A DNA stretch of 64,000 bases, taken from NCBI GenBank assembly GCA_947084965.1, contig CAMTUG010000004.1:23490-87489 (forward strand), given 5' to 3'. Positions 1-47,482 of the stretch are shown here, in pieces. Under the pieces are notes generated by a model. The model did not search any database and was not told where the DNA came from. It saw only the letters and a program-made list of their open reading frames with translations. The translations under genes were made by a program, and so were the position numbers. This DNA comes from an uncultured Parcubacteria group bacterium. GTDB taxonomy: Bacteria > Patescibacteriota > Patescibacteriia > UBA9934 > CAMTUG01. How positions within the stretch are numbered: the first letter of the stretch is position 1; every line of letters begins with the position of its first letter.

Positions 1-108
1 CCGGGTTAAGGGTCGCGATCACGATACCGATCAAGATGGCGATGAGCGCCATGACGATCAAGATTTCGAGAAGGGTGAAACCTTGAAGGCGTTTTGAGAC
101 GTACATAG
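1..108 (-). CDS. type IV pilin / pseudopilin, N-terminal fragment (runs off the left edge)
   Basis: The reverse complement of 1-108 translates to MYVSKRLQGFTLLEILIVMALIAILIGIVIATLNP, a class III prepilin signal (GFTLLE) followed by a hydrophobic helix. Confidence 0.6.
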
Positions 109-2615: not shown

Positions 2616-3047
2616 ATGCTGCGCGGTTTTACCCTCATTGAAATCCTGATCGTCATGGGGATCGCCGCCATTCTAGCCGGACTTGCCGCGACCTGGTCCT
2701 TTGATTACGTCCGCTCACAGCGGGTCGAGTCAGCAGCCCGATTCATCCTAGCCGATCTCACCCAAGCCCAAACAGACGCCTACACCCAAGCAAACGACTC
2801 TGCACACGGTGTTCTGATTGAAAGCGACCAAACAACCCGATTTGAAGGCGACAGCTACGCCACTCGTACGGTCTCTGCCGATGTTGTAAATCCGTATCCG
2901 TCACCCGTCACCGTTTCCGGATTAACCGAAGTTGTCTTCCCTGCCGGAGCGCTCGCTCCTGTGGCCGGTGGGGCGATCACCATTTCTAGCGACGACAAAA
3001 CGTTCACCATCACTGTTTCCGATTATGGTTTACTCAGCATCGAATAA
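2616..3047 (+). CDS. prepilin-type N-terminal cleavage/methylation domain protein (pilin/pseudopilin)
   Basis: N-terminus MLRGFTLIEILIVMGIAAILAGLAA. Confidence 0.7.
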   Translation: MLRGFTLIEILIVMGIAAILAGLAATWSFDYVRSQRVESAARFILADLTQAQTDAYTQANDSAHGVLIESDQTTRFEGDSYATRTVSADVVNPYPSPVTVSGLTEVVFPAGALAPVAGGAITISSDDKTFTITVSDYGLLSIE

Positions 3048-4458
3048 AGGCCAGTCCACGATCGAAGTCATGTTTGCCGTAGCTATTTTCGTCATCATGG
3101 CTGTCTCTGTGTTCACGCTCTTCGGGGTGATCCTGACACAAGGCAATCTCGGCCAGGAGCGCCAGCAAGCACGGTCGCTCTTGGCCGAGGGGCTGGAGGC
3201 AACGCGACAGATCCGCAATCAAAACTGGGATGATCTCTCCGTCGGAACGCACGGACTCGCTCTCACCACCCACTGGGGATTTAGCGGATCAGAAGATCTG
3301 ACCGGGATTTATCACCGCAGCGTGACGGTCACAGAAACAAACGATGATGAGCGCCAAGTTGAAGTTGAAATCCGTTGGGAATCAGCGAGCGGCCGTACGC
3401 TCACCGTAAGCGGATCGACGATTCTTAGTAATTGGTTGACCTACGGTTTCACGGTCGCTGGAACGAGCAACTGTGAAGCGTCATCGTCATTCACGGGCGA
3501 CTGGACCAATCCGGTGGCGGTCGGTAGTGGCGATATCGGTCCAGGAAACCAAGGAACGGACGTGGCCGTAGATTATCCGTACGCCTTTATTTCAGGGGTC
3601 GCCGCCAGTTCGTCAAAACCTGACCTCTTTGTCTTTGACGTCAGTAACCCCGCTTCTCCCACGCTGGTCCTCGAAGTAAACACGGGAAGTTCGGGGATTC
3701 AGACCCTGTCGATCGAAGGCGATTATCTCTACGCCGCATCCGCCAACGACAGTAGCGAGCTGATGATCTTTGATATCAGCAATCCGCTTACAACAAGCAA
3801 AATTGGCGGGGCTAACATCAGTGGAAGTGCCGACGGGGCGACGATCATCGCCGGTGAAGGATGGGTCGCCTTAGGCATGACCTCGAGCGGCCTGCATGAC
3901 CTCTTTATTTATGATGTGGGCGATCCTGCCACACCCAGCTTAGTCGGAAGCTTTGAAGTCGGTGCAGGAGTCACCGACCTCGCGGCGTATGAATCCACAC
4001 TCTATGTCGCGACGAGTTATGCCACCGGGGATCTTTTCCTTGTGGACATGACCGATCCGATCTTCCCTGTTTCTCTCAGCACTTATAACGTCTCTGGAGC
4101 CAGTGGCCTGACGGGCGTGGCGTATAACTATCCGAACACCCTCATCGCCGGTGACGGAACGGGTAGGCTGTATATTTTAGACGTCACTGATCCATTGGCG
4201 ATCACCGAAACGGCAAACTACTACACCGGCAGTACGATCAACGATATCTTCTGTGTGGTGGACGACCTCGCCTTTGCCGGCACAACCAACAGCACAAAAG
4301 AATTCTTAGTTCTCGACATCTCCGATTTCGCCGCGATCACCGAAGCGACCTCTATCAATTTCCCGCAAATGGCGACCGGACTCGACTTCGCAGAAAATTA
4401 CGTCTTCATCTCCCTGCGCAGTAATGATGCCCTGCGTATTGTCACTTCAACACCGTAG
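3025..4458 (+). CDS. pilin-like protein fused to an LVIVD-repeat beta-propeller
   Basis: Start taken at the internal Met (MVYSASNKGQSTIEVMFAVAIFVIMAV, a prepilin-like N-terminus). Six LVIVD-type repeats follow: LFVFDVSNP, LMIFDISNP, LFIYDVGDP, LFLVDMTDP, LYILDVTDP, FLVLDISD. Confidence 0.6.
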   Translation: MVYSASNKGQSTIEVMFAVAIFVIMAVSVFTLFGVILTQGNLGQERQQARSLLAEGLEATRQIRNQNWDDLSVGTHGLALTTHWGFSGSEDLTGIYHRSVTVTETNDDERQVEVEIRWESASGRTLTVSGSTILSNWLTYGFTVAGTSNCEASSSFTGDWTNPVAVGSGDIGPGNQGTDVAVDYPYAFISGVAASSSKPDLFVFDVSNPASPTLVLEVNTGSSGIQTLSIEGDYLYAASANDSSELMIFDISNPLTTSKIGGANISGSADGATIIAGEGWVALGMTSSGLHDLFIYDVGDPATPSLVGSFEVGAGVTDLAAYESTLYVATSYATGDLFLVDMTDPIFPVSLSTYNVSGASGLTGVAYNYPNTLIAGDGTGRLYILDVTDPLAITETANYYTGSTINDIFCVVDDLAFAGTTNSTKEFLVLDISDFAAITEATSINFPQMATGLDFAENYVFISLRSNDALRIVTSTP

Positions 4459-4467
4459 CCGGAACGT

Positions 4468-4947
4468 ATGAAAGGATTTCTCCTGGTGGAAACACTCATT
4501 TACACCGCCCTGCTTGCATTGATCACCTCTGTGCTTGCATCGATCTACGTTTCCGGGATGGATACGCGTTCCCTAATTGAAGGCCAACAACGAGTGCTGC
4601 AAACGAGCCAGTTCGTCGAGCAAGCCATCCTTCACCGGCTGGAGCAAGCGACACTCGTCAATGTCCCGTCTTCGGCCGGGGTGAGTGACACCCTCTCGAT
4701 CGACTCCCCAACCGCCGCAGATGATCCGGTCATCTTCGCAATCACCGATGAAACGTTGACCATGACTCTGGGAGCTGGGGCACCGATCGCGTTAACGACG
4801 GATGTTACGGTTCAAGAGTTTACGGTCACCCGCCTGAGCGGTTCACCCGCTTCGCTGAGCATCGAAGTGACGTATCAAACGACGACGTCATCTGGGGCAA
4901 GCCCAACGATGACTTCGACGATCCCCTACACCTTCCGCTATGAATAA
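4468..4947 (+). CDS. minor pilin / pseudopilin
   Basis: N-terminus MKGFLLVETLIYTALLALITSVLA (prepilin-like). Confidence 0.6.
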   Translation: MKGFLLVETLIYTALLALITSVLASIYVSGMDTRSLIEGQQRVLQTSQFVEQAILHRLEQATLVNVPSSAGVSDTLSIDSPTAADDPVIFAITDETLTMTLGAGAPIALTTDVTVQEFTVTRLSGSPASLSIEVTYQTTTSSGASPTMTSTIPYTFRYE

Positions 4948-5332
4948 TCAACGAGGATTCACCCTCATTTTGAGCACCATCATCATCTCCACCGTCTTCC
5001 TCCTGATCGGCATCACCACCGCCAATCAGCTGTTTGGTCAGATAGAAAACACGCTCGGCGGAGAAGACTTTTTTCAGGCCAAAATCCTGGCTGAAGGATG
5101 CGCCGACGCCGCTTTGATCGAACTGTCGTACGACAGCGCCTATAACGGAAACGAAATGCGGACGATCAACGGAGCGTCCTGCACGATCCGTCCTGTAACT
5201 ACCAGCGGGCCTACAGCGACGATCGAAACAGAAGCCGAAGTCAACGACCGCATCTATCGACTCCGCGTCGAAGTTTCCAACACCAATCCCCCGATCACCG
5301 TCTCTTCTTGGCAACGAGTGACAACGTTTTAA
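4940..5332 (+). CDS. minor pilin / pseudopilin
   Basis: N-terminus MNNQRGFTLILSTIIISTVFLLIGI; overlaps the upstream gene by 8 nt. Confidence 0.6.
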   Translation: MNNQRGFTLILSTIIISTVFLLIGITTANQLFGQIENTLGGEDFFQAKILAEGCADAALIELSYDSAYNGNEMRTINGASCTIRPVTTSGPTATIETEAEVNDRIYRLRVEVSNTNPPITVSSWQRVTTF

Positions 5333-5379: not shown

Positions 5380-5847
5380 ATGCGCGATGCTGTGCTCGTC
5401 TTTCTTCTGCGGCGACGGTCCGTGGCGCTTGGGCGAAAGCTCAAATACATCGTGGCCGGATACCGCACCAGCGCCGGCGGAAAAATCGAACCGGGCGAAA
5501 CACCCGAACAGGCCGCCAAACGTGAAACGAGTGAGGAGGCCGGCGCTGAAACGCACCTTCTGCTGTACCGCGGGGTGGTCGAGATCGAGAACATCGATCA
5601 CTCGGACTGGAACTGTCGCCTGCACCTCTACATCTGCCGCGAATTCGATGGTGAGCCGACGAACAGCGATGAGATCATCGACTGGCAGTGGTACGACATT
5701 GACAACCTGCCATGGGGCGAGATCCGTCCTTCGGACCGCACCTGGCTCGAGGCGATCCTCGTCCACGACGAGATCGTCGCGTTGCGCTGCGTAGTACAGA
5801 ACAATCAGCTCGTGAGCTGTCAGATCCTCGACGGCCCACTTCCATGA
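5380..5847 (+). CDS. NUDIX hydrolase
   Basis: Nudix box GGKIEPGETPEQAAKRETSEEAG; about 65% GC; GGAGG RBS. Confidence 0.75.
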   Translation: MRDAVLVFLLRRRSVALGRKLKYIVAGYRTSAGGKIEPGETPEQAAKRETSEEAGAETHLLLYRGVVEIENIDHSDWNCRLHLYICREFDGEPTNSDEIIDWQWYDIDNLPWGEIRPSDRTWLEAILVHDEIVALRCVVQNNQLVSCQILDGPLP

Positions 5848-6918: not shown

Positions 6919-7085
6919 GCTTGCTCCCAGCGAAGATTTCGCTAGAGGGTCGGCTATCCCAGCCGTAGGGTTCGCTCCGAGGGAGACGACAAAGTAAGAT
7001 AACAACAGCGAAGCGTTTTGTCCAGCGTTTTACTGGATTCTTTTGAAGAAATGCTGGATAATGTGAGTAATTTTATCTTAGCAAC

Positions 7086-7862
7086 ATGAAACTCGGGGAA
7101 AAAACACAAATTACCCTTTTGATCGTCGGCTTCGTGGCATTTTTAGCTGTTGTCGTGTGTTTGTTGGCAAATGGCACCCAGCTTTCAGAGGGATTCAGAG
7201 AATCATTGATCGTTGAGTTGATCGGGGCGGGATTTGTGACTCTCTTCGTTTCTCTTGCGATGGCCTTGATCCAGCACCTTTTTGCGGCGAATGTAGAGAA
7301 GATTAGAGCAAAAAGAGAATCTCTAGCATGGATAGAAGAGATCATGGAGCCAGAATTCAAATCCGAATTTGAAAAGGGTGCCACGCCTTGGAACATGCAC
7401 GAGCGAGAGGATGCGGCGTTTTATTTTCACGACTCGCCCATTAACCGCATATACGACCTCATAATGCGACACCATGAAAACATCGTGAAGTGTGCGGGTC
7501 CAAGTGACTCCATGTTTTTGGCGCGTCTTTTGGAGATCAAACGGATTGTTGAAGCAGGTCGTAGTGTTGGCAGTAAAATTGATCTCGATTTGCGAAACAG
7601 AGTACGTTCGTTTAACAAAAATAGAAATGCAAATTCCGCAAATGACGGGTCGTTGTTTGTATACGCAAGAGCAAAGATTTTTTCCAATCTGACCGAAGCG
7701 AAGATTTTGGAGTATGTCGAATATGGCAATGACCAAATCCGCACGGAGTTTATGAAGACGCTGGACGATAACACGACCAACACCTGGCGTGAGAAAATTG
7801 GAATCTACACCGCCTCTCTCAAAGGCGCGCTATACAAAATGGGTTACCGAGCTGACAAGTAA
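7086..7862 (+). CDS. hypothetical two-TM membrane protein with a cytoplasmic domain
   Basis: Two N-terminal TM helices; AT-rich; first gene of the AT-rich island. Confidence 0.5.
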   Translation: MKLGEKTQITLLIVGFVAFLAVVVCLLANGTQLSEGFRESLIVELIGAGFVTLFVSLAMALIQHLFAANVEKIRAKRESLAWIEEIMEPEFKSEFEKGATPWNMHEREDAAFYFHDSPINRIYDLIMRHHENIVKCAGPSDSMFLARLLEIKRIVEAGRSVGSKIDLDLRNRVRSFNKNRNANSANDGSLFVYARAKIFSNLTEAKILEYVEYGNDQIRTEFMKTLDDNTTNTWREKIGIYTASLKGALYKMGYRADK

Positions 7863-7877
7863 ATTAATGTTGATTTT

Positions 7878-8747
7878 TTATTGTCTCTCAATATTTTTTC
7901 TTTCGTGTTCATCGATAGCAAGATAGATCGCGTCAACCGTAATAATTTTCGCCAATCCTAGATGCCCTTCGATCTTTGCCAAATCACCCTGACTCAACCC
8001 AGCGTTCTCGTCCTTTTCTCTATGCAAAAATTTAGTAACGATTCCAAGTAAGTAAGCCTTCTTGATGGGTTTTGTGCCTTCGATATGCATGAACTGTGGT
8101 TTGCAAAAAACTGGTCCACCGCTATTGCCTGGAAAAACTGGAGCATCCAAGTAAATGATGTTTTGTTTTAGGGATTCTGAATCAAGACGAGCTATCAGGC
8201 CACCTCGGCAAATAGCATAATTCTTTACTTCACCACGTAGTCCTAACGGGAACCCCAGGAAGAATACTTCATCACCCGAACAGAGGCCGACCTCTTCGTA
8301 ATCTTGGGAGCGAAGCGCCGTTTCAGTATCAATAATTTCGACGAAATCTATTCCGTTGTCACGCAATACCCTCGTCTGTATCGGGATAACAGCAACATCG
8401 ATTTCATTCGAAGGAAAACTGAAGTTTGCACCATTAGCCCCCGTGTAGAGAGGCAATTGAAAACTTTGAGTCGTTTCTTCCCCGAGCCGATCAAAACGTA
8501 AGAAAATCTCTTTTTTCTGGGAGGATTGATCGATGCCATTTTTGTAAATGACATGTTTTGCGGTCACAAGGTAGGATTTCACCTCAAATCTTGTATCGTC
8601 GATTTTTTCGATGACCTTACTGAAAAGAAAGCCTGTCCCAATCGGCTGAAGTACGCCAAAGGCATCGGGGTAGTCAATTGAAACCACGCACTTTAGGTAT
8701 CCAGGAGGAAGTAGCGCCATATAATAGACAACCCCAACATTTTGCAA
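7878..8747 (-). CDS. trypsin-like (chymotrypsin-fold) serine peptidase
   Basis: Catalytic triad context TAKHV (His), DVAVIP (Asp), GNSGGPVF (Ser). Confidence 0.7.
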   Translation of the reverse strand: MQNVGVVYYMALLPPGYLKCVVSIDYPDAFGVLQPIGTGFLFSKVIEKIDDTRFEVKSYLVTAKHVIYKNGIDQSSQKKEIFLRFDRLGEETTQSFQLPLYTGANGANFSFPSNEIDVAVIPIQTRVLRDNGIDFVEIIDTETALRSQDYEEVGLCSGDEVFFLGFPLGLRGEVKNYAICRGGLIARLDSESLKQNIIYLDAPVFPGNSGGPVFCKPQFMHIEGTKPIKKAYLLGIVTKFLHREKDENAGLSQGDLAKIEGHLGLAKIITVDAIYLAIDEHERKNIERQ

Positions 8748-8774
8748 TAAAATTCAACAATAATCAACACTTGT

Positions 8775-10037
8775 ATGCGTTTTCCAACAGAAGCCTCCCT
8801 CAGCGATTTGAGTCTCGATAAATTTGGGCATCGAGAACTGGCCAAAAACCTTGTAGCAAATGTTTTTTTGGAGATGGAGCTTCCGAACACCTTTGGCATA
8901 TACGGAAATTGGGGAACGGGAAAATCAACCTTCTTGCAGGCAGTCCAAGGGGAACTTACAAACAATGCAGATGCAAGAGACATACTTGCTATCAGATTTG
9001 ATCCGTGGAAATACGAGTACGCTGATCATATTGATCTGTTTACAGCTTTGATAAGTGATTTCAGAGAGCAGGCTAAAATTCCAAAAACAAATGAGGTTTG
9101 GAATGATCTCACAAGCGCAATGCTTGGCATATCAACTTCTATCTTCAAAAAACTGCTCCATAAAGCAAGTGCAGGGATGCTTGATGTGGATGACATGCGC
9201 GCCGAGGCTAATCTGGCCGCTACGGCATTTCCCGAGGATCAATTTGAACAAGCCGATCTGGTTCAACAACTGCGTGGAAAGCTCAACAATCTCATACAGG
9301 TTGCTCTTACGGAGAACACGAAAAAGCGCGTTTGCATCTTCATCGATGATCTTGACCGATGCTCCCCAGAGCATACAGTTACACTTTTGGAAGCGATAAA
9401 AAACTTTCTACTTACCAGCAACGTACTATTCGTTTTTGCACTGGACCGTCGCATCGTTTCTGAGATGATCGAGAAAAAATATGGTCTGCACTCTGGCTAT
9501 GGGGACGAATATCTAACAAAAATTATTCAGTACTCGCTCACACTTCCCGCGCCAACTCATGAAGGTATTTTGAGCGATATCCTTGCTGATCACCTCATTG
9601 AAATGCCGAAGGACACACAGGGTTGGATTATCAGATTTACCAATAGATTCGCGAATGAAACACGAAAATTCAAACAATTGGTTTACCAGTTAATTACGCA
9701 AGCAAAATTGGGAGGCATTGATCTTTCAAAAGACGCTCCGCTTGATACTACAAGTCTATTCTGTGCTATTTATTTGAAGTCTCGTTTTCCAAAACTTTTT
9801 CATGTCAGTCGAAAAGCGGCTCTTGAAAACATTAAAACCTATGGTTCTATGATTTCGGCTGAAACTGATAATAAGCCAGAAAAAGCTCGTGACTTCGCAA
9901 GTCAGTTGGGCATATCGGGGGAAGAGAGAAAAATATTGACTGAATTGTTTATTTTCCAAATGCCAAACAACAAAGGGCTCATGAACGAGAATCGTCATAA
10001 GCTCGAGGAAGCAGGTTTTTCGAGAATGATCGATTAG
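8775..10037 (+). CDS. KAP-family P-loop NTPase
   Basis: KAP-type Walker A GIYGNWGTGKST (GxWGxGKS) and Walker B FIDDLDRC. Confidence 0.75.
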   Translation: MRFPTEASLSDLSLDKFGHRELAKNLVANVFLEMELPNTFGIYGNWGTGKSTFLQAVQGELTNNADARDILAIRFDPWKYEYADHIDLFTALISDFREQAKIPKTNEVWNDLTSAMLGISTSIFKKLLHKASAGMLDVDDMRAEANLAATAFPEDQFEQADLVQQLRGKLNNLIQVALTENTKKRVCIFIDDLDRCSPEHTVTLLEAIKNFLLTSNVLFVFALDRRIVSEMIEKKYGLHSGYGDEYLTKIIQYSLTLPAPTHEGILSDILADHLIEMPKDTQGWIIRFTNRFANETRKFKQLVYQLITQAKLGGIDLSKDAPLDTTSLFCAIYLKSRFPKLFHVSRKAALENIKTYGSMISAETDNKPEKARDFASQLGISGEERKILTELFIFQMPNNKGLMNENRHKLEEAGFSRMID

Positions 10038-10237
10038 TCCTCAGGGCAAATCTTCGCACACCTGTCCGTCGGTGCAGTATTTGAGCTTTGGGAGCTCGTA
10101 TCAGCCTCAGTTACTGCCTCCTGTGGCGCGCCAGAATCTCCTGTGACATGGTCGCAGGCTCCATTCGCCCATAACCCTCGCTTTGCGCTTTCGGCGTCAA
10201 ATTGGGACGTTTCTTAGTCCTGGGGATGTACATAGCA

Positions 10238-10489
10238 CTATGTCTTCATCGCACTGTAAATTGCGTCGCGTAGTTTCTCTTTATCACCGAGCTTTACAGG
10301 GATCTTATGTTTCTCGCCTCCGCTCGTTTCGATAACAACCTGGGCGTGGAGTGGAACGCCAAGTTCGATACTGGAGATGCGATGAATTGGAATAGATTTT
10401 TCTATGAAGAAAACCTTGTAGGAAACATGGGTGGAAAAAACCGTTGTCTTCGTCCCAAGGTAATTCGTTTCAAATAGCGCTTCAGCCAT
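10238..10489 (-). CDS. hypothetical protein (83 aa)
   Basis: ORF only, AT-rich. Confidence 0.3.
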   Translation of the reverse strand: MAEALFETNYLGTKTTVFSTHVSYKVFFIEKSIPIHRISSIELGVPLHAQVVIETSGGEKHKIPVKLGDKEKLRDAIYSAMKT

Positions 10490-10813
10490 ATGTGTTGTTG
10501 TGGTTTTGAATTAGGGCTGGATTTTGAGCAACGCAAAAGGTCGCCCGAGCCAGCGACGATTCTCTTTCGAAAACCGCCTCACGTCCTTTCGGAGCGTGAA
10601 CCACAACAACGAGGGCTGGTCAGACGACCAACAACGTTGTTGTGGATTTATTAGAGCCATGCCCATCATTATCTGATGGGTTTAGGCAATTGTGCTTGTA
10701 TTTTAACGTAAGGCACTGAAAAAGCAAACGCTATAGGCTGAATAAAGCCAAAAAATCTAGCATAAATTGCTTAATAGTGGCAGAATCAATAGGAAAAAGA
10801 ATGAAGAATAAGT

Positions 10814-11491
10814 ATGAAGGATGAGGACTTAGATTTGTCGGCAAAAGCAATAGAGCTTAATCGGCAGCAGTTTGTAGGCACCATTTGTCATTTCGAGGGT
10901 GAAAAAATCGCCCAGTGGCTTCGTGTTAAAAAGTTGGGGATCCCGCAAGAAGGTTTTGTTGATCAACACGCTGAAAACCGTTGGTTGAATCCAGTAGACC
11001 AGAATGTAGAAGAGGTAATGAGGAGACATCATCTTGTTGGGCGCGCTATCAAGGTATTGTTGGGTATTTTCAAACTCACAGATAATTACAGTGGAGCCGT
11101 ACGACATTTCCTACTCCAAAACAAAGTCGGACATATTCCAGGGAATTTTTCCATCGAGTACACGCCCGATAACGGTAAGATTAAAACCGAGTATCATGAC
11201 CTGCCAAAGACAGGAGAGAAGACGCTTGAAAACAAATTACGAGTTGAGGTTTTCAAACATCTGAAACCGAAGACTGTCGCTCGAAGAACAAGAAAAACTG
11301 CAGAGCGGGATAGCCGTGTTACCAGCCTCACGAAGACAAAAAAGAAAGGAACGCAGGTGGAAAGGGATTTTGGCATTGTGGCGGAACTGTATCCCGTGGG
11401 AACAGTGGACGATTTTTCAAAAAAAGCTGATACGAAGCGTGTACAGTTGATAAAAAAAGCCCGTGAAAGAGATAAAAAACGTTACAGTTAA
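10814..11491 (+). CDS. hypothetical protein with a Lys-rich C-terminus
   Basis: ORF followed by an intrinsic terminator. Confidence 0.4.
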   Translation: MKDEDLDLSAKAIELNRQQFVGTICHFEGEKIAQWLRVKKLGIPQEGFVDQHAENRWLNPVDQNVEEVMRRHHLVGRAIKVLLGIFKLTDNYSGAVRHFLLQNKVGHIPGNFSIEYTPDNGKIKTEYHDLPKTGEKTLENKLRVEVFKHLKPKTVARRTRKTAERDSRVTSLTKTKKKGTQVERDFGIVAELYPVGTVDDFSKKADTKRVQLIKKARERDKKRYS

Positions 11492-11525
11492 TTTTCAAAA
11501 TTAGTGTCACCATTCAAGGAGCGCA

Positions 11526-11552
11526 AAGGGGTACCGTCGAGGTACCTTTTAT
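11526..11552 (+). terminator. rho-independent terminator
   Basis: GGTACCgtcgaGGTACC hairpin followed by TTTT. Confidence 0.55.
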
Positions 11553-11929
11553 GTTTGCGCCCGACGCCTCACAACAAACCTCCGAAGATCAGGTCGTCGA
11601 AGCATTCGCTGAGATGTTGTATATGGCTGCGCGTCAGGAGGTAAAAAATAAGTATGAACACAATCCACAATCAGTTTCCGACAAGTAATTTCTACCTTGC
11701 CGCCTATCTGCTTTCGCACGAGATCAATATGATCAACTGCGAACGTGAACATGGCGGAAAGGTTACTTTTGTTTTTTCAGATTCTGAAAATCTACGCAAC
11801 CGCGTGACTGAATTTACATTCGAACGAAATGCGCTCGTGAGTGCATCCTCCTTTGTGAATTCGATCAAGAAGTTGAAATCCCTTTTGTACGACGGGATTT
11901 GATGACAATCAAAGTATAAGAATAACCAT

Positions 11930-12538
11930 ATGGCGGAACGCCGAATGATACGCAAAGATCTTTGTGAGAATGATGCTTTCAATGATCTCACGATGCCCGC
12001 ACAAATTCTCTACATGATGCTGATTCTCCACGGCGATGATGAGGGTTGTTTCAGGGCGGATGCAAAGTACTGGAGTAGAACCGTTTTTTACACAAAGCGC
12101 CAGGGTCCATTTCGTGTAGAGCGAATGCTTGATGAACTGCGAGAAGCGAGACTAATCATCACGGGCGAAACAAAAAATGGTCCCGCTGGCTTCATTCTTG
12201 GGTGGTTTAACATGCAAACTCTCACCGCAAGCAAGAGTAAACCTAGCCAATTTTATGAACTTTTGGTTGCCCATGGAATAACTCCATGTTGGGGAATTCC
12301 TGCAGAAGAGAATGTAAGGAAAGAAAAGCAAAGTGAAGTGAATGAAGGTGGGGTGAGGTCGAATTCGCCAAGTCGTTTTCGAGAAGTTGCAGGTAAACAC
12401 AGGGACGAAAAAATCGCTAGATTACAGGCGGAAAAGAAAGCTGTAATGGAGGGAATGTCTATGGGGGCTATTTCAACTCCTAATGATTTCGATGAAATTA
12501 GCGAATATGCCGAAAATGACGTGCGAGAAGATACCTAA
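11930..12538 (+). CDS. hypothetical protein (202 aa), mobile-element-associated
   Basis: ORF with an AGGAGG-like RBS. Confidence 0.4.
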   Translation: MAERRMIRKDLCENDAFNDLTMPAQILYMMLILHGDDEGCFRADAKYWSRTVFYTKRQGPFRVERMLDELREARLIITGETKNGPAGFILGWFNMQTLTASKSKPSQFYELLVAHGITPCWGIPAEENVRKEKQSEVNEGGVRSNSPSRFREVAGKHRDEKIARLQAEKKAVMEGMSMGAISTPNDFDEISEYAENDVREDT

Positions 12539-13001
12539 GGTTAGCACGCGGTACTTCCGACCGCGCATGAGAGGATCGATTCTCACGGATCAACGCCTTG
12601 CTTCTTTTACTCTAACATCAACGCCCTGCTATTTCGGAGGGCAACGGTATTGGTTCATTTGTACGGCGGATAAAGATGGAGAACCGTGTGGAAAGAGGGC
12701 TGGCGTCTTGTACTTAATAAACGACATATTCGCTTGCCGCCGATGCCACGATTTGGCATACGAGAGCCAGCAAAGGAATCACGTCGGCAGAAGAGCATTT
12801 TGTCGTAAGTATCGAGAAGGAGAAAAAAACATGGAACGATCTTTTATGGAGATGCGAATAAAACAATGGCGAGGGAACCCAACGAAGCGCTATCAGAAAT
12901 GGCTCATGCTCAGCGAGCGGCGCACACGCGATGCATCACGATTTCTGCTTGCAGAAATGTTAGTCATCGGATTCATTAAAAGTCGTCGTAAATCTCGCTG
13001 A
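12483..13001 (+). CDS. hypothetical Cys-rich (zinc-finger-like) protein
   Basis: CxxC motifs (CTADKDGEPCGKR...CRRCHD); start uncertain. Confidence 0.35.
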   Translation: MISMKLANMPKMTCEKIPKVSTRYFRPRMRGSILTDQRLASFTLTSTPCYFGGQRYWFICTADKDGEPCGKRAGVLYLINDIFACRRCHDLAYESQQRNHVGRRAFCRKYREGEKNMERSFMEMRIKQWRGNPTKRYQKWLMLSERRTRDASRFLLAEMLVIGFIKSRRKSR

Positions 13002-13052
13002 AGTATGCAGGAACTTTTCATTTCTCCAGTTGCACGACATAATTCAAATGAT

Positions 13053-14645
13053 ATGGACAAAAAAGCACTTCTCTATCTTCGCGTTTCAACGGACAAACAG
13101 GCCGAAAAAGGTTTCAGCCTGCCAGCTCAAGAAGAGGCGTGTCGTACCTACGCAAAAACGCATGGTTTTTCTGTTGAACATGTTTACCGTGATGAGGGAG
13201 AATCTGCGCGCTCCGACGATCGGCCTCAACTGCAAGAGATGCTCGCTCGTTGCGACGAAGGTGACATTGCCGCGGTTATCGTCTACAAGCTCGATCGCTT
13301 TGCGCGCAACGTTTTCGATCACGTGCGGAATGCCGCTCGCATACGCATGAAGAAGGCCGAACTCCATTCTGTTACAGAAAATATAAGCGGTACACCCGAA
13401 GGAATGATGGTAGAAGCCATCCTTGCTAGCGTAGCGCAATTTTTTAGCGGTAACCTTGCCCGTGATGTACTCAAGGGCATGAACGAGCGAGCCAAACAGG
13501 GCATGTGCAACTCCAAGGCTCCGCCTGGCTACAAAAACATGCGGGAGATCATTAACGAAGATGTTGAGAGAAAATTCGTGATTCCTGACTCCAAAACTAA
13601 GGATTATGTGATTCAGGCGTTTGAAAAGTTCGCGACGGGCGGTTATACGGTGGCCGATCTTTGCGATTGGTTCTTTTCCGTTGGAATGGAGCAAAAAAAG
13701 AACAAAGGCAAGCCTCTCGCTATTTCAATGGTGAGTCGAATGTTGAGCAACAAATTCTACATCGGCATCACGCAATGGAATGGCATTGAGGCGGAAGGAG
13801 TACACGAGCCCATTATTTCCAAAGAACTATTCCAGCGTGTCCAACTTGTACTCAGCGACCGTATCCACGGAAGAAGCAGGAAGCGTAAAAACCTTTTCTT
13901 ATTACGCGGGCTCATGCAATGCGGCGAGTGCGGTGCAAACATCACTTATGAAAAGCAACTCACTTCATCGAAGCGGTTGATACCGTATTACCGTTGTTCA
14001 AAAAGGCAAGATAACCGAAAAGTCGATTGCACCCAATCATACGTAGACGCTAATTTTTTGGAGAAAGAAATTGCAAAAGCCGTAGAAGCCGCTCGTCTCC
14101 CCCGACACATTATTGTAAAAATCGAAAAGAAGCTCGCAGAGATTCACGAGCGGGAACAGGAGTCGGTTACTAGGGAGCGTAAGCAGATTCAAGCAAAAAT
14201 GAATCAGCTCAACGAAAAGGAACGTTCGCTGGTGAACAAGTATCTCGAAAATAAGCTGACCGAGGAAATCTACGAAACGATCCGAGAAGAAATCTCTTCA
14301 GAACGCATAAACTGCAAGGCAAGGCTCGAAGCAAACGAAAGCACGATCCAGGCGGCGATCCGCATCCTGGAACAAGCGGTTACCTTCACGCGCGACCTCC
14401 CAGTCGCCTATAAGCGCGCGCCAGACCCAATCAAGCGACGATTCCTGGCCATTCTCTTCAAAGAGATTGTGGTGAAGGATGGTGGCTTGTATAAGGTTGT
14501 ATTGAATGAGCCGCTCGACTATCTCTGCAAAGAGTTTGCCCAAAATAAAAACCTCCCCGTCAAATTCGACGGAGAAGCTTTTGGTGACCCCAAGGAGAAT
14601 CGAACTCCTATTTGGTGGATGAGAACCACCTGTCCTAACCGTTAG
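13053..14645 (+). CDS. large serine recombinase (integrase)
   Basis: Resolvase N-domain LYLRVSTDKQ with catalytic Ser, recombinase domain, zinc ribbon CGECG; 3' end overlaps the tRNA-Glu. Confidence 0.85.
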   Translation: MDKKALLYLRVSTDKQAEKGFSLPAQEEACRTYAKTHGFSVEHVYRDEGESARSDDRPQLQEMLARCDEGDIAAVIVYKLDRFARNVFDHVRNAARIRMKKAELHSVTENISGTPEGMMVEAILASVAQFFSGNLARDVLKGMNERAKQGMCNSKAPPGYKNMREIINEDVERKFVIPDSKTKDYVIQAFEKFATGGYTVADLCDWFFSVGMEQKKNKGKPLAISMVSRMLSNKFYIGITQWNGIEAEGVHEPIISKELFQRVQLVLSDRIHGRSRKRKNLFLLRGLMQCGECGANITYEKQLTSSKRLIPYYRCSKRQDNRKVDCTQSYVDANFLEKEIAKAVEAARLPRHIIVKIEKKLAEIHEREQESVTRERKQIQAKMNQLNEKERSLVNKYLENKLTEEIYETIREEISSERINCKARLEANESTIQAAIRILEQAVTFTRDLPVAYKRAPDPIKRRFLAILFKEIVVKDGGLYKVVLNEPLDYLCKEFAQNKNLPVKFDGEAFGDPKENRTPIWWMRTTCPNR

Positions 14646-14656
14646 ACGATGGGGCC
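14582..14656 (-). tRNA. tRNA-Glu (anticodon CUC)
   Basis: Cloverleaf folded by hand: acceptor GGCCCCA/TGGGGTC, anticodon loop TTCTCAT, T-loop TTCGATT, encoded CCA. Confidence 0.7.
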
Positions 14657-31837: not shown

Positions 31838-32161
31838 ATGGACTTGCTTCAAAAGAAATGTGCGGCTTGTGAGGGCGGGACCCCGCCGCTCACAGCAGAC
31901 CAGATCGCCACGTTCAAGGCAGAATTAAAAACCCCTTGGGACGTCGTAGACGAAAAACATCTTCGACGATCGTTCACCTTTGCGGATTTCAAGGAGGCGA
32001 TGGAGTTTGTAAACAAGGTCGCCGAGGTCGCTGAGTCGGAAGGTCACCACCCAGATATCAGCATTCACTGGAACAAGGTCGACATTGATCTGTGGACCCA
32101 TGCGATCGGCGGACTCTCAGAAAACGACTTTATCCTCGCGGCAAAAATCGAGGTTCTGTAA
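31838..32161 (+). CDS. 4a-hydroxytetrahydrobiopterin dehydratase (PCD/DCoH)
   Basis: Motif EGHHPDI; start taken at the internal Met. Confidence 0.7.
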   Translation: MDLLQKKCAACEGGTPPLTADQIATFKAELKTPWDVVDEKHLRRSFTFADFKEAMEFVNKVAEVAESEGHHPDISIHWNKVDIDLWTHAIGGLSENDFILAAKIEVL

Positions 32162-32175
32162 TCCAAAAACAACAA

Positions 32176-32210
32176 GAGACTCGGCCCTTGATCGCCGGGC
32201 CTCTTTTTGT
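32176..32210 (+). terminator. rho-independent terminator
   Basis: GGCCC...GGGCC stem followed by CTCTTTTTGTT. Confidence 0.45.
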
Positions 32211-32246
32211 TAAGGTCCGGTCGGACCATCAACCCCGGAGAGTCCC

Positions 32247-34046
32247 ATGACCCGCACCGTCCCGACCCGCACCGTCCCGACCCGTCCCGATCCCCACTCG
32301 TACCGTGACAACACCCAGCCGACCATGAAGCACATCGAAGTCGAGATCGAACCTGACTTCGACCAGCGCATCATCTACGGCGTCGTCGAGATCGTCTTCG
32401 ATCGCGGCGGTACCGTTGACCTCGACACCCGTGACCTGACGATCACGCGCGTCGTCAACGCCGACTTCCAGTCGCTCCCCTTCGAGCTCGCCGAGCCGGA
32501 CCCGCTGCTCGGCACCCGACTGACCTTCGTCGTTCCGGACGACGAGCCGGTGGTCATCATCGAGTACAAGACCGCCCCGACCGCCAGCGGCCTGCAGTGG
32601 CTCACCCCGGAACAGACCGCGGGCAAGCGGCACCCCTTCCTCTACAGCCAGGGGGAGTGCATCCACACCCGGAGCTACATCCCTTGCCAGGACACCCCCG
32701 GCGTGCGGGTCACGTTCCAGGGCAGGATCATCGTGCCGTCGGAACTGCGAGGACTGATGGCCGCAACCTTCGTCGAGCGCCGCAAGGATGGTGACGGAGT
32801 CTCCGACACCTGGAAGATGACGAAGCCGATCCCGCCCTACCTGATCGCCTTCGCTGTCGGCGACGTCGTCTCACACGCCCTCACGCCTCGCATCCGCGTC
32901 TGGGCCGAACGCCCGGTGATCGAAGCCGCGGCGCGCGAGTTCGAGGCCCTGTCGACGATCATGGACAAGGCCGAGGAGCTCTTCGGTCCCTACCCCTGGG
33001 ACCGCTACGACCTCCTCATCATGCCCCCCTCCTTCCCGTTCGGCGGGATGGAGAACCAGGGGCTGACCTTCCTCAGCCCGTCGGTTCTCGCCGGAGATGG
33101 CTCGATGCTCTCCGTGGTCGCCCACGAGCTGGCCCACTCCTGGACCGGCAACCTGGTGACCAACGCGACCTGGGACCACTTCTGGCTGAACGAGGGCTGG
33201 ACGACCTGGGCCGAGGGACGGATCGGCGAGCTCGCCTTCGGCGTCTCGGTCGCGGACCTCAACCGCGCGATCATGGGTACCGACCTCCGGCGCGACATCG
33301 AGCGGTTCATGAAGACCGGCCGACCGGATCTCACTCGCCTCGCCTGGAACCTCGGTGGCACTGACCCGGACGACGCCTTCAGCCGCGTCCCCTACAGCAA
33401 GGGCGCCCAGTTCCTGACGGCGCTCGAGACCCACGTCGGCCGCGACGCCTTCGATGCGTTCACCATGCACTACATCCAGGAATTCGCCTTCCAGAGCATC
33501 ACGACCGAGGAGTTCCTCCACTTCCTCGAAGCACACCTGCCGGGCGCGTTCGCGGCGATCGATGGCGATACCTGGATCCACGGCACCGGAATGCCGAGCA
33601 CCGCCGTGCCGATCTCCTCCCCGCTCATCGACGAGGTCACGCAGTTCGCCGTCCAGGGGCAGCTCCCGTCGCTCGCGCAGGCCGCGGACTGGCACGCGCT
33701 GCAGTGGGCGATCTACCTCGAGCGCCTTCCGCGGACGATCATGCACGATCGCATCCACGACCTCCAGCGCCTCCTGCACCTCGAGGAGCACGGCAACATG
33801 GACATCCGCTTCAACCTGGCGCTCCTGTACGCCGAGGCAGGCTACTACGACGGACTCCAGTTCGTCGAGTCGGTCCTCGCGGGCACCGGTCGCACCCGCT
33901 ACCTCCTCCCGATCTACAAGGCGCTGGCGCAGAAGGGCGGCGTCTTCGGAGAGTTCGCCCGCCGCGTCTTCGCCGAGCAGAGCGCGAGCTACCACGCGAT
34001 CGCTCAGAAGGGGGTCGAACGGACCTTCGTCGAAGCAGCCACGTAG
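32247..34046 (+). CDS. M1-family zinc aminopeptidase (LTA4 hydrolase-like)
   Basis: HELAHSWTGN...NEGWTTW (HExxH-x18-E), GGMEN motif; about 66% GC; the 5' end carries a 15-nt tandem duplication. Confidence 0.8.
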   Translation: MTRTVPTRTVPTRPDPHSYRDNTQPTMKHIEVEIEPDFDQRIIYGVVEIVFDRGGTVDLDTRDLTITRVVNADFQSLPFELAEPDPLLGTRLTFVVPDDEPVVIIEYKTAPTASGLQWLTPEQTAGKRHPFLYSQGECIHTRSYIPCQDTPGVRVTFQGRIIVPSELRGLMAATFVERRKDGDGVSDTWKMTKPIPPYLIAFAVGDVVSHALTPRIRVWAERPVIEAAAREFEALSTIMDKAEELFGPYPWDRYDLLIMPPSFPFGGMENQGLTFLSPSVLAGDGSMLSVVAHELAHSWTGNLVTNATWDHFWLNEGWTTWAEGRIGELAFGVSVADLNRAIMGTDLRRDIERFMKTGRPDLTRLAWNLGGTDPDDAFSRVPYSKGAQFLTALETHVGRDAFDAFTMHYIQEFAFQSITTEEFLHFLEAHLPGAFAAIDGDTWIHGTGMPSTAVPISSPLIDEVTQFAVQGQLPSLAQAADWHALQWAIYLERLPRTIMHDRIHDLQRLLHLEEHGNMDIRFNLALLYAEAGYYDGLQFVESVLAGTGRTRYLLPIYKALAQKGGVFGEFARRVFAEQSASYHAIAQKGVERTFVEAAT

Positions 34047-35978: not shown

Positions 35979-36605
35979 TTAATCGACCCGATAATCTGGA
36001 TTCACGTAAAGATATGGATAATCCCTTGGCCTTGCCGCAAGTCCATCTTCTACTGGATTTTCCATTATGTAAAGGATCTTCTCCTCGAGCTTCCGTTCAT
36101 TGAGGATAAGATAGTCAAAAAACGAGTCCTGCCAAATCTTTTTTATATCTCGGCTTGGCGGGGCAGAGTCGCCCCGCCTATACGATGGTTCGTTAACGGA
36201 TGAACGCTGGTCTGAGCTTGAACCTTGTATTATAGGCGGGGCCACTGCGCCCCGCCTCGCCGATTCATCCGCGTACCATCGAGCAAAATAACTCTTTACA
36301 CCGTGCATATAATCCGAAAACGTTTTCTCTTTTGTCTGCGGCCAGATAATCGCGTGAAAATGATCCGGCATGACGACCGCGGCGATGAGCTCAACTTTAA
36401 AGCGGTCTGCGTAAAAGTGAAGTTCCTCGAGGAGCTTGCGAGCGCATACTTCATCTCTAAATATCTCCGCCCGCCCATGCGTCACCGAGGTTACGTAGTG
36501 CGGTGTGTCCTCGTGGACAAAAAGAGCGTGATAGCGAGGGGAACGCATACGAACTAAAGCGCATATTTTCCAATCGTCGTGCAAAAATCGTAAGTCTTTT
36601 CCCAA
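35979..36605 (-). CDS. IS200-like / REP-associated tyrosine transposase (RAYT), with an in-frame REP-pair insertion
   Basis: HUH motif PDHFHAIIW, C-terminal YIMENPV; two REP palindromes at 36157-36256 lie inside the ORF. Confidence 0.6.
   Translation of the reverse strand: MGKDLRFLHDDWKICALVRMRSPRYHALFVHEDTPHYVTSVTHGRAEIFRDEVCARKLLEELHFYADRFKVELIAAVVMPDHFHAIIWPQTKEKTFSDYMHGVKSYFARWYADESARRGAVAPPIIQGSSSDQRSSVNEPSYRRGDSAPPSRDIKKIWQDSFFDYLILNERKLEEKILYIMENPVEDGLAARPRDYPYLYVNPDYRVD
36157..36182. repeat. REP-like palindrome (GGCGGGGCagagtcGCCCCGCCtata)
   Basis: Same family, inverted relative to the 36231 copy. Confidence 0.7.
36231..36256. repeat. REP-like palindrome
   Basis: Identical to the 35948 copy. 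Confidence 0.7.
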
Positions 36606-46112: not shown

Positions 46113-47459
46113 CTAGACAATGAGTGGCAACGGATGAATTTCGCTCTTGCGTCCCAAAACAATATCCTCGATGCGATAGGCCCCGTGGGTCGGCGCTTCC
46201 ACGTAGCCGTTCCAAGCCATGCGTGCCACCCCCCCGGAATTAATCCAGTCGAAGAGCCACTCGTTCATGTAGCGCGGATCTGACATTGGGACGCCTCCCC
46301 CGATGTACTGCAACCAAACGGCGTTAAACTGTTCTTGTGAACCGATCGGCGGAGCCATGATGATCGGCACCCCAAGCGCCGTGTAGAACGACATTTCCGA
46401 CGGCTTGGTCATGACGATATCTGTTTCGTGCAAGAACGCGTTAAACGCTTCGAAATATTCCGCGCGATCTTTGTATACAGGAATCAATAAACTCTTACCG
46501 ATCTCTTTGCCGAGACCAAGTTCCTTGGCACTCTCAATGTAATAATCGGCCACGTTCTTACGAATCCCCGCAAACAAAGCCAAGCGAATGCGATGCTGGC
46601 GAATGTCATGAGCGAGGGACGTCATCACGTCTACCCCGAGTTTGCGCTGAGCACCGGCACCGCCAACAGAAAACGACAAGGTGAGTGGATGGGTCTTTTT
46701 TGGCACACATTTGGCGGCCCCAAGCGCGGCACGGATCGTTTTGGCGTAGCGCGAAAGAAAGATGCCGTTCGGATCGAGGTTGCAGATACGGCCCATCAGA
46801 TCGGCTTGCAGCACTTTCTCTGGATAACCGCCGATTAAATCTTTTGGGAGCGGAAAACCGGTAAGGAAGATCTGATTCTCTGGTACACCGTACAATTGCA
46901 GGCGTTCCTTACACCGGCCATTGGCGGCAAAGTATTTGATCTTTGAATTTTTCGGATCCAGCGGCGCCCAGTGGCGGGCGATGTCCGTGTCGGTTGTCAC
47001 GCAATAAATCTCACCTGGGTAGCCGTAGTAGTCAGCCATGAACGCGACCGTAAAAAAGGTCGTGACGATCGGCAACGGATCTTCGCGCAACTTCTCAATC
47101 AGGTGCTTCCCCCATCCTTTTTTGATCATCCGGTACACCTGCCGCAATTGCAACGACGGTTTGGATAAGTCACGCCGCGGATAAAACGGCGGGATCTCTT
47201 GAAATTCATCCATGATGCCGAACATCAAGTCCCCGATGATCGGAATCGGTTTCAAACGCGAAATGGCTTCGTAAATCTTGCGGCCTTCCTCCCAAAACTT
47301 TCGGTCCGACGTGGGGATTCCACGATAATCGTTCGCCGTGACAATGTCGTGGCCAGCCAGATCGCGAATCGCATAGGCGGCACGGGCGTGGCCGTATCCC
47401 ATGTTGACGTCGATCACGTGCGCCATCTTTCGGTGATGCTGTTGGTGATGATAAGCCAT
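46113..47459 (-). CDS. GT-B glycosyltransferase, GT28-like (MGDG synthase/MurG-like)
   Basis: N-terminal VIDVNMGYGH; C-terminal PIIMAPPIGSQEQFNA (GT28 C-domain-like). Confidence 0.45.
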   Translation of the reverse strand: MAYHHQQHHRKMAHVIDVNMGYGHARAAYAIRDLAGHDIVTANDYRGIPTSDRKFWEEGRKIYEAISRLKPIPIIGDLMFGIMDEFQEIPPFYPRRDLSKPSLQLRQVYRMIKKGWGKHLIEKLREDPLPIVTTFFTVAFMADYYGYPGEIYCVTTDTDIARHWAPLDPKNSKIKYFAANGRCKERLQLYGVPENQIFLTGFPLPKDLIGGYPEKVLQADLMGRICNLDPNGIFLSRYAKTIRAALGAAKCVPKKTHPLTLSFSVGGAGAQRKLGVDVMTSLAHDIRQHRIRLALFAGIRKNVADYYIESAKELGLGKEIGKSLLIPVYKDRAEYFEAFNAFLHETDIVMTKPSEMSFYTALGVPIIMAPPIGSQEQFNAVWLQYIGGGVPMSDPRYMNEWLFDWINSGGVARMAWNGYVEAPTHGAYRIEDIVLGRKSEIHPLPLIV

Positions 47460-47482
47460 AATATTTTGAGATGTCTGATATT

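Follow-up and report, generated by a model that had tools for sequence, protein, structure and literature searches.

The window analyzed here, a stretch of 64,000 nucleotides from an uncultured Parcubacteria group bacterium (contig CAMTUG010000004.1, positions 23,490 to 87,489), contains near its left end a type IV filament cassette in which one of the minor pilins is predicted to carry a seven-bladed LVIVD β-propeller behind its pilin module. The best explanation for this protein is a modular minor pilin that displays the propeller as an adhesin at the tip of a type IV filament, a reading to which we assign a probability of about 0.6. Its parts differ in strength: assembly of the modular pilin into a filament is highly probable given its sequence features and structure model, a location at the tip is likely, and adhesion to a host or surface ligand has, by analogy with characterized systems, about an even chance of being the function of the propeller. 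The protein is a new example of the known modular pilin design and not a new system or category. The initial annotation of this DNA had described a pilin-type N-terminus fused to an LVIVD β-propeller within a type IV pilus operon, and this core description is borne out by the Pfam LVIVD match, the family alignment, the AlphaFold model and synteny.

The N-terminal pilin module

The gene runs from the ATG at 3025 to the stop codon at 4456-4458 and encodes 477 residues; the 478 residues given initially correspond to the number of codons including the stop. An identical 477-residue product is present in a public protein collection (P0001), where the gene was called independently, together with more than 60 full-length homologues that share 25-84% identity. 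Two in-frame alternative start codons lie 5' of the ATG (TTG 2932 and GTG 2968). Most of the 29 displayed rows of the 58-sequence family alignment start 7-9 residues ahead of the conserved glycine, and the stretch 5' of ATG 3025 encodes, in another frame, the C-terminal end of the preceding pilin. Hence, an upstream start is unlikely and the start originally chosen stands.

The protein begins with a short, positively charged class III leader that ends in glycine and is followed by a hydrophobic segment of ~20 residues (leader and cleavage region MVYSASNKG/QSTIE, the slash marking the predicted cleavage site; leader/mature boundary MVYSASNKG/QSTIEVMFAVAIFVIMAVSVFTLFGVIL). The leader and helix string quoted in the initial annotation, KGQSTIEVMFAVAIFVIMAV, is found at residues 8-27. 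Glutamate at position +5 of the mature protein corresponds to E14 of the precursor and is present in 54 of 56 members of the LVIVD-pilin family. Position -1 is glycine in 48 and alanine in five of 53 members, while position +1 is glutamine in 45 and phenylalanine in four of 53, which gives the cleavage-site consensus [KR]-G/Q-S-x-[ILV]-E-[VI]-[LI]-[IV]-A. Glutamine at +1 is unusual for bacterial pilins. It is the normal N-terminus of processed pilins in Methanococcus maripaludis, where it is turned into pyroglutamate (Berry and Pelicic, 2015, PMC4471445). In the window, Gln10 (3052-3054) marks the predicted G/Q cleavage site, a variant that the N-methylation hidden Markov models (HMMs) miss. 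Indeed, the check proposed with the prepilin model TIGR02532, for which a miss had been named as refuting, gives a negative result, as neither TIGR02532 nor PF07963 (N_methyl) matches the window copy even at E ≤ 1. PF07963 does match the N-terminal modules of 16 of 21 relatives, weakly (best E 2e-5), and the homologous pilin modules P0138, P0196 and P0271 exceed the Pfam N_methyl cut-off.

When 1.84 billion cluster representatives were searched with a profile of residues 1-140, 354 proteins scored E ≤ 1e-30 and 3,784 reached E ≤ 1e-10. Among the 150 best representatives, 61 have G/Q and 58 the canonical G/F at the cleavage site, and Glu5 is kept in 147. From the family alignment, AlphaFold2 models a 55-residue helix (12-66) followed by six strands at residues 74-135, the lollipop shape of pilins. 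The mean predicted local distance difference test (pLDDT) is 91.9 for the full-length model and 91.8 for the pilin module modeled alone. W118 and W137 are invariant in the pilin head. Taken together, the conservation of G(-1) and E(+5), the N_methyl matches of relatives and homologous modules, the interchange of G/Q and G/F within one module family and the predicted fold strongly support that the N-terminus of the window protein is a pilin despite the HMM misses.

The LVIVD propeller

The C-terminal part matches Pfam LVIVD (PF08309) with E 4.3e-17 and 61.6 bits (gathering cut-off 20.2), as anticipated from the repeats noticed initially. All six of these are present (LFVFDVSNP 201-209, LMIFDISNP 246-254, LFIYDVGDP 293-301, LFLVDMTDP 337-345, LYILDVTDP 382-390 and FLVLDISD 427-434), and a seventh, degenerate repeat, ALRIVTSTP, forms the C-terminal end of the protein at 469-477. 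The six blades first proposed thus give way to seven four-stranded blades (28 strands) in the AlphaFold model, which start at about residues 159, 206, 251, 298, 342, 387 and 432 and form units of 44-47 residues. The suggestion that such a model would place a propeller on a pilin stalk holds: lollipop, linker and propeller are predicted in this order with pLDDT ~92. The best Foldseek matches in the PDB are seven-bladed WD40 propellers with 11-13% identity (β-TrCP, E 6e-12; template modeling score normalized to the query 0.53, for the propeller part only). A sequence profile of the full family yields only marginal WD40 matches in the PDB (E ≥ 1e-3) and no solved sequence relative.

The propeller is extremely acidic, with a net charge of -31, six lysine and arginine residues among 322 and an isoelectric point of 4.05. 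Acidity is a feature of the propellers throughout the family (mean net charge -22.7, range -39 to -12). Conservation is uneven around the propeller: across the family, mean pairwise identity reaches 48% in blade 1, 43% in blade 2 and 49% in blade 7, compared with 28-34% in blades 3-6. The two closest sequences, 84% identical as a whole, share 91-95% of their residues in the conserved blades and 70-89% in the others. The linker is strongly conserved along with blades 7, 1 and 2. On the basis of this conservation alone, we speculate that the sector formed by the linker and blades 7, 1 and 2 may attach to the pilin or the tip complex, and that the variable sector of blades 3-6 may face outward to the ligand and hold the specificity. 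Furthermore, Cys150 in the linker (3472-3474) and Cys410 in blade 6 (4252-4254) are both present in 35 sequences, both missing in 23 and never found singly. This suggests a disulfide that staples the linker to the propeller, a pattern that shared ancestry could yield as well.

A conserved six-gene cassette

The propeller pilin gene is flanked by pilin-like genes on either side, as the initial annotation had it, and belongs to a cassette that encodes an assembly ATPase, a platform protein and four minor pilins in the order pilB-pilC-H-I-J-K, the propeller pilin filling the I slot (Table 1). Neighboring genes overlap by 8-23 bases or are separated by 1-10, and there is strong support for a translationally coupled, conserved unit. 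The ATPase scores 482.6 bits with the NCBIfam model of GspE and 467.1 bits with that of PilB, both under the equivalog cut-offs. The divergently transcribed canonical pilin at the left edge of the window matches an N_methyl pilin upstream of T2SSE in locus L001 and the "5th" pilin of loci L002, L004 and L005, and is probably the major pilin of the filament.

Table 1. Coordinates of the filament cassette and of the parts of the propeller pilin in the window.
Feature	Position	Strand	Basis or remarks
Modular minor pilin gene with LVIVD propeller	3025..4458	+	I-class pilin module and seven-bladed propeller, 477 residues
Predicted leader peptide M1-G9 (MVYSASNKG)	3025..3051	+	Predicted cleavage G9/Q10; family statistics
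Predicted pilin α1 helix, residues 10-66 (model helix 12-66)	3052..3222	+	AlphaFold; first ~25 residues hydrophobic
Predicted pilin globular head, residues 67-137, six-stranded β-sheet	3223..3435	+	AlphaFold; NCBIfam matches of family members
Linker, residues 138-158	3436..3498	+	AlphaFold; low confidence at 141-145; contains Cys150
Predicted seven-bladed LVIVD β-propeller, residues 159-477	3499..4455	+	PF08309; AlphaFold; Foldseek
Divergent canonical pilin gene, 5' part (MYVSKRLQG/FTLLEILIVMALIAILIGIVIATLNP...)	1..106	-	Minus-strand translation; 3' part beyond window edge
Assembly ATPase, PilB/GspE family, 427 residues	229..1512	+	Pfam T2SSE E 1.8e-120
Platform protein, PilC/GspF family, 366 residues	1514..2614	+	T2SSF E 4.8e-51 (two domains); NCBIfam GspF 275.6 bits
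H-slot minor pilin, 143 residues, MLRG/FTLIE	2616..3047	+	PF07963 26.6 bits (cut-off 21.2); TIGR02532 28.4 bits (above cut-off); GspH E 9.5e-11
J-slot minor pilin, 159 residues, MKG/FLLVETLIY	4468..4947	+	Weak ComGE/ComGF matches; conserved GFTLIE(T)LIY N-terminus
K-slot minor pilin, 130 residues, NQRG/FTLIL	4940..5332	+	Without Glu5

A scan of one genome per species with an alignment of 18 closer sequences as query returned 18 genomes. All are metagenome-assembled genomes (MAGs) and most are labeled as Candidate Phyla Radiation (CPR) lineages. The labels comprise the Patescibacteria group, Uhrbacteria, three Harrisonbacteria, Paceibacterota, unclassified "bacterium" MAGs and third-party MAGs assigned to Saccharibacteria or Gammaproteobacteria. 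According to tblastn with the six window proteins, the cassette is colinear in 18/18 genomes as far as the contigs reach, and T2SSE and T2SSF genes stand directly upstream of the LVIVD pilin (with the H-slot gene between) in the window and in all 18. Four further, divergent loci have the same layout of T2SSE, T2SSF, a ~145-residue pilin, a ~470-residue LVIVD pilin, a ~165-residue pilin and a ~128-residue protein, sometimes followed by a canonical pilin of 150 residues. The architecture is thus conserved in the pilus loci of relatives, a point that the initial annotation had left to be checked. The N-termini of the flanking slots are conserved as well: the H slot has G/F..(I/V)E in 18/18 orthologues and the J slot G/FTLIE(T)LIY in 16/16, both with Glu5, while the K slot has neither glutamate nor aspartate at +5 in 21/21 copies (the window copy and 20 orthologues).

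Two of the third-party MAG contigs, L010 and L012 (CAYJVP010000067.1 and CAYRYG010000061.1), are labeled "uncultured Gammaproteobacteria" and contain all of a CPR-type cassette, in which the LVIVD pilin is 45-47% and PilB 67-70% identical to the respective window protein. Their labels are probably wrong.

Relation to I-class minor pilins

The order of the E. coli gsp operon, E-F-(G)-H-I-J-K, fetched for comparison, matches that of the cassette. The window protein resembles the core minor (pseudo)pilins GspI, PilV and ComGE in its place in this order, between H- and J-class genes and with the Glu5-less K next. The capping pseudopilin GspK, like its counterparts PilX and ComGG, is characterized by a missing Glu5. 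Moreover, ComGE, PilV and GspI, which are mutual equivalents, are the most frequent NCBIfam matches among 21 pilin modules of the family (ComGE 15/21, best E 2e-5; PilV 9/21, 5.9e-8; GspI 8/21, 3.3e-4), at scores below the curated cut-offs (ComGE 21.3-24.6 bits against 49; GspI 11.9 bits against 44.35). An hhalign comparison of the module profile with E. coli GspI reaches 86.7% probability over 100 columns and extends into the sheet of the head, a parameter-dependent result that shrinks to 23 columns under other settings. The alignments to GspG, GspH and GspJ cover the helix only (20-64% probability). In comparisons of the H, J and K slots with E. coli GspG-K, the alignments were dominated by the N-terminal helix; H resembled GspH and GspG about equally, and J and K were uninformative. 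Gene order, the Glu5 pattern and the NCBIfam matches are therefore the basis for the labels H-I-J-K. The window protein lies in the I slot and is similar to I-class pilins, short of being a demonstrated member of that family. This similarity, together with the missing Glu5 of the K pilin, leads us to read it as a minor pilin of the tip complex. GspI, PilV and ComGE differ from it in that they comprise 80-130 residues, lack an extra domain and have phenylalanine or methionine at +1, whereas the window protein has 477 residues and glutamine at this position.

Variable heads behind the pilin module

C-terminal parts differ among the 150 best representatives of this module. A LVIVD propeller is found in 60, and 36 carry one to three copies of an unannotated domain of ~125 residues, two of these together with a propeller. 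Other tails, namely fn3, Flg_new+DUF2341+Laminin_G_3 or unknown sequence of up to 730 residues, occur in ~27, and ~29 modules are bare or truncated. Laminin_G_3 belongs to the ConA-like lectin superfamily, which is also found in the pilin PilC of Streptococcus sanguinis. At locus L007, the variant with the 125-residue domain fills the identical slot (T2SSE, T2SSF, 157 residues, [272 residues], 185 residues, 140 residues, PilM). The propeller is thus one of several exchangeable heads on one carrier.

The ~125-residue domain, which has no Pfam match, is encoded at L007 6001-6819 (P0138) and in ~35 other proteins (P0135, P0139, P0140, P0171, P0212 and others), and it stands next to a LVIVD propeller in P0134 and P0248. 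Judged by its sequence context, it looks like an undescribed family of pilus-tip modules. On another CPR contig (L006, 4231-7728), T2SSE and T2SSF are followed by two tandem pilins of ~575 residues, each with Flg_new, DUF2341 and Laminin_G_3. N_methyl is recorded, faintly, on the first of them only, and the downstream one (P0271) shares the carrier module of the window protein.

Proposed function and alternatives

In the arrangement that we favor, a prepilin peptidase encoded elsewhere would cleave the precursor after Gly9. The pilin module would then form a priming complex with the three other minor pilins on the PilC platform, capped by the Glu5-less K pilin, and polymerization of the major pilin beneath this complex, driven by the ATPase PilB, would lift it so that the propeller ends at the tip. 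There it could serve as an adhesin with which an episymbiotic CPR bacterium recognizes a host or surface. A core minor pilin of the GspI/PilV/ComGE class would in effect carry a covalently fused PilY1-like function. Adhesion is favored because the modular pilins and tip propellers found with genetic or biochemical data all mediate binding (the von Willebrand factor A (vWA) pilin PilB of S. sanguinis, PMC8179133; PilY1; PilX2 of TM7x, PMC11623550), because all cultivated CPR bacteria are obligate episymbionts (Grossman et al., PMC11623550) and because sister variants of the window protein carry lectin-type modules.

Besides the silent N-methylation models, several results weigh against this interpretation. 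A Foldseek search of the pilin module against the PDB gives nothing significant (best E 0.1), and the sequence profile of the module aligns there to geopilin with its N-terminal helix alone (E 0.31). The I-class HMM matches are all under their curated cut-offs and rest largely on the same helix, and the alignment to GspI shortens when the settings are changed. Pfam scans of ~40 open reading frames (ORFs) in the window and a regular expression for the class III motif revealed no PilD, PilT, PilM/N/O or ComEC. Lastly, the literature on LVIVD ends at the definition of the repeat in 2004, with no function for LVIVD propellers in any organism.

The uneven conservation of the propeller and the strictly conserved position of its gene within the set of four minor pilins might also be expected of a mainly structural or priming factor, in which the propeller caps or stops the tip complex or acts as a checkpoint of its assembly, much as PilY1 does in priming, and is not a ligand-binding adhesin. 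PilY1 primes type IVa pili together with minor pilins (reference 56 cited in PMC11623550), and the strong conservation of the linker and blades 7, 1 and 2, family-wide as well as in the closest pair, fits such a role. However, the same slot holds very different modules (the 125-residue domain, lectin-type modules) or none, so that the propeller as such is dispensable for priming, and TM7x filaments form without PilX2 (PMC11623550). We therefore regard a mainly structural role as unlikely. An uncleaved signal-anchor, which would keep a LVIVD surface protein in the membrane beside the pilus machinery and make it no pilin in practice, would account for the failure of the prepilin HMMs on the window copy and for a +1 glutamine that is atypical of substrates of bacterial prepilin peptidases. 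SignalP likewise failed on the TM7x pilins PilX1 and PilX2 (PMC11623550). This alternative is improbable in view of the nearly invariant G(-1) and E(+5), the interchange of G/Q and G/F inside one homologous module family, the 55-residue helix of the predicted pilin lollipop and the conserved operon slot between the H and J pilins; moreover, the +1 glutamine has its precedent in the processed pilins of Methanococcus (PMC4471445).

The initial annotation had offered a DNA receptor next to a tip adhesin or host receptor. As a DNA receptor, the propeller would take hold of extracellular DNA for uptake, the filament would be a Com-like competence pilus, and the cassette would correspond in CPR bacteria to comGA-GG. 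Among the NCBIfam models, ComGE matches the pilin module most often, the neighboring pilins show weak ComGD and ComGF matches, the gene order is similar to comG, the window scans found no PilT, and in monoderms DNA is captured by minor pilins located at the tip (PMC12153270). Yet known pilin DNA receptors use electropositive patches, and the Com pilus binds DNA at the ComGD-ComGF interface and not at ComGE (PMC12153270). The extreme acidity of the propeller, shared by the whole family, argues against DNA binding and favors adhesion, and we rejected the DNA receptor as very improbable. A catalytic propeller displayed at the tip, for instance an enzyme that modifies glycans or the cell wall on the host surface, appears extremely improbable. 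Modular pilins with peptidase modules do exist (PMC8179133), and the window protein has weak sub-threshold matches to SBP56 and to a quinohemoprotein amine dehydrogenase domain. Both are under their cut-offs, the latter sits in the pilin head and not in the propeller, no conserved set of catalytic-type residues is present among the invariant residues (mostly glycine, proline, tryptophan and aspartate), and the nearest solved folds are WD40 scaffolds.

The tip-displayed adhesin can be extended to a broader proposal, which we put forward only tentatively and consider rather doubtful. In CPR bacteria of the Parcubacteria/Uhrbacteria type, the I-class priming pilin would be a universal plug-in carrier of tip modules into which a PilY1-like function has been merged, the acidic LVIVD propeller, with variable blades 3-6 that set the host range, would be the determinant of host recognition, and G/Q cleavage would give a pyroglutamate N-terminus instead of N-methyl-phenylalanine. 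If true, the latter would place archaeal-style pilin chemistry, as in Methanococcus, inside a bacterial filament.

Comparison with known modular pilins

The initial annotation considered the pilin-LVIVD architecture not commonly described. No LVIVD pilin has been studied, and to this extent the statement is correct; 30 such proteins had been cataloged by 2021, and a CPR propeller pilin has since been studied genetically, so that it does not hold in full. Dataset S1 of Raynaud et al. (2021, PMC8179133) lists architectures that combine the N-methyl signature with IPR013211 (8+8+7+4+1+1+1 = 30 proteins), and IPR013211 is the LVIVD repeat (PMC10210494). An 860-residue protein from Falkowbacteria in the same study contains this repeat, there called a "motif of unknown function", 12 times. 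The modular pilins described there, with PilB (pilin and vWA, an adhesin) and PilC (pilin and ConA-like lectin) of S. sanguinis as examples, likewise consist of a pilin module, a short linker and a bulky C-terminal module that is probably displayed at the tip. That catalog, in which the pilin-LVIVD architectures appear as IPR012902 with IPR013211, required the canonical N-methyl signature, so most members of the G/QS..E family, including the window copy, escape it. A further difference from the cataloged LVIVD pilins is the assignment of the window family's carrier to the I slot within a conserved H-I-J-K set.

The CPR propeller pilin is PilX2 of Nanosynbacter lyticus TM7x (Saccharibacteria), which also bears a heptabladed propeller on a minor pilin with a non-canonical signal peptide (PMC11623550). 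Deletion of PilX2 reduces host binding from 10.6% to 4.6%, and PilX2 was proposed to be a tip adhesin or lectin (Grossman et al., 2024, PMC11623550). The two proteins are set apart by the description of their propellers: that of PilX2 is of the RCC1 type, whereas the window protein is LVIVD, with no RCC1 among its four Pfam matches at E ≤ 1. In addition, machinery and pilins are encoded in separate loci in TM7x and in one cassette in the window. PilY1 (PilC), the tip adhesin of type IVa pili, is similar in that a β-propeller stands at the tip alongside four core minor pilins and has roles in both adhesion and priming. It differs in being no pilin and docking non-covalently, whereas the window propeller is fused to a pilin. 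PilY1 and Neisseria_PilC are not among the four Pfam matches of the window protein at E ≤ 1 (the IPR008707 signature is lacking). Homologous propellers with 22-34% identity over 21-98% of the query occur in non-pilin LVIVD surface proteins of 600-800 residues with type IX secretion sorting or FlgD-Ig domains (Zixibacteria, WOR-3, Chloroflexota and others), which lack a pilin module and use other export routes.

What is new here is a large G/Q subfamily invisible to the N-methyl signature, an LVIVD pilin in the I slot of a six-gene cassette common to several CPR lineages, and a single pilin carrier that swaps heads. The current picture of type IV filaments is unchanged by these findings. Catalogs of modular pilins that rely on signatures count too few of them, because the N-methyl models miss signal peptides of the G/Q variant. 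Most CPR/Patescibacteria are uncultured episymbionts, it is largely unknown how they find and hold their hosts, and genetics has been done for Saccharibacteria only. The family provides a concrete and widely conserved candidate for a host-binding module in other CPR lineages (Uhrbacteria, Harrisonbacteria, Paceibacterota and relatives), and the defined six-gene cassette may lend itself to heterologous expression. The findings also provide a testable context for the LVIVD repeat, for which no function has been known since 2004.

Other features of the window

The pilus operon is followed by a NUDIX gene (5380-5847) and then by an island of lower G+C content at ~7000-14650 (0.42-0.47 compared with ~0.53), which encodes a trypsin-like peptidase (7878-8747, minus strand), a KAP-family P-loop NTPase (8775-10037, plus strand) and a large serine recombinase (13005-14645, plus strand), along with several ORFs without Pfam match. 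The island is probably an integrated mobile or defence element. On the minus strand, an ORF of 1328 residues at 51227-55213 has no Pfam match at E ≤ 0.001, and a subtilase (Peptidase_S8) fused to FG-GAP repeats at 59942-61945 is probably another secreted or surface protein of the propeller type. Two adjacent paralogues with one DUF6938 each are also found on this strand (46113-47618 and 47483-48817); the listed ORFs overlap by ~135 bases, and one of the two starts probably lies further downstream. The G+C content rises to 0.651 at 32001-34000, compared with ~0.53, over a gene similar to M1 aminopeptidase/leukotriene A4 hydrolase (32247-34046, plus strand), which may have been acquired horizontally. 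An IS200-like Y1 transposase is encoded near this spike (35979-36605, minus strand).

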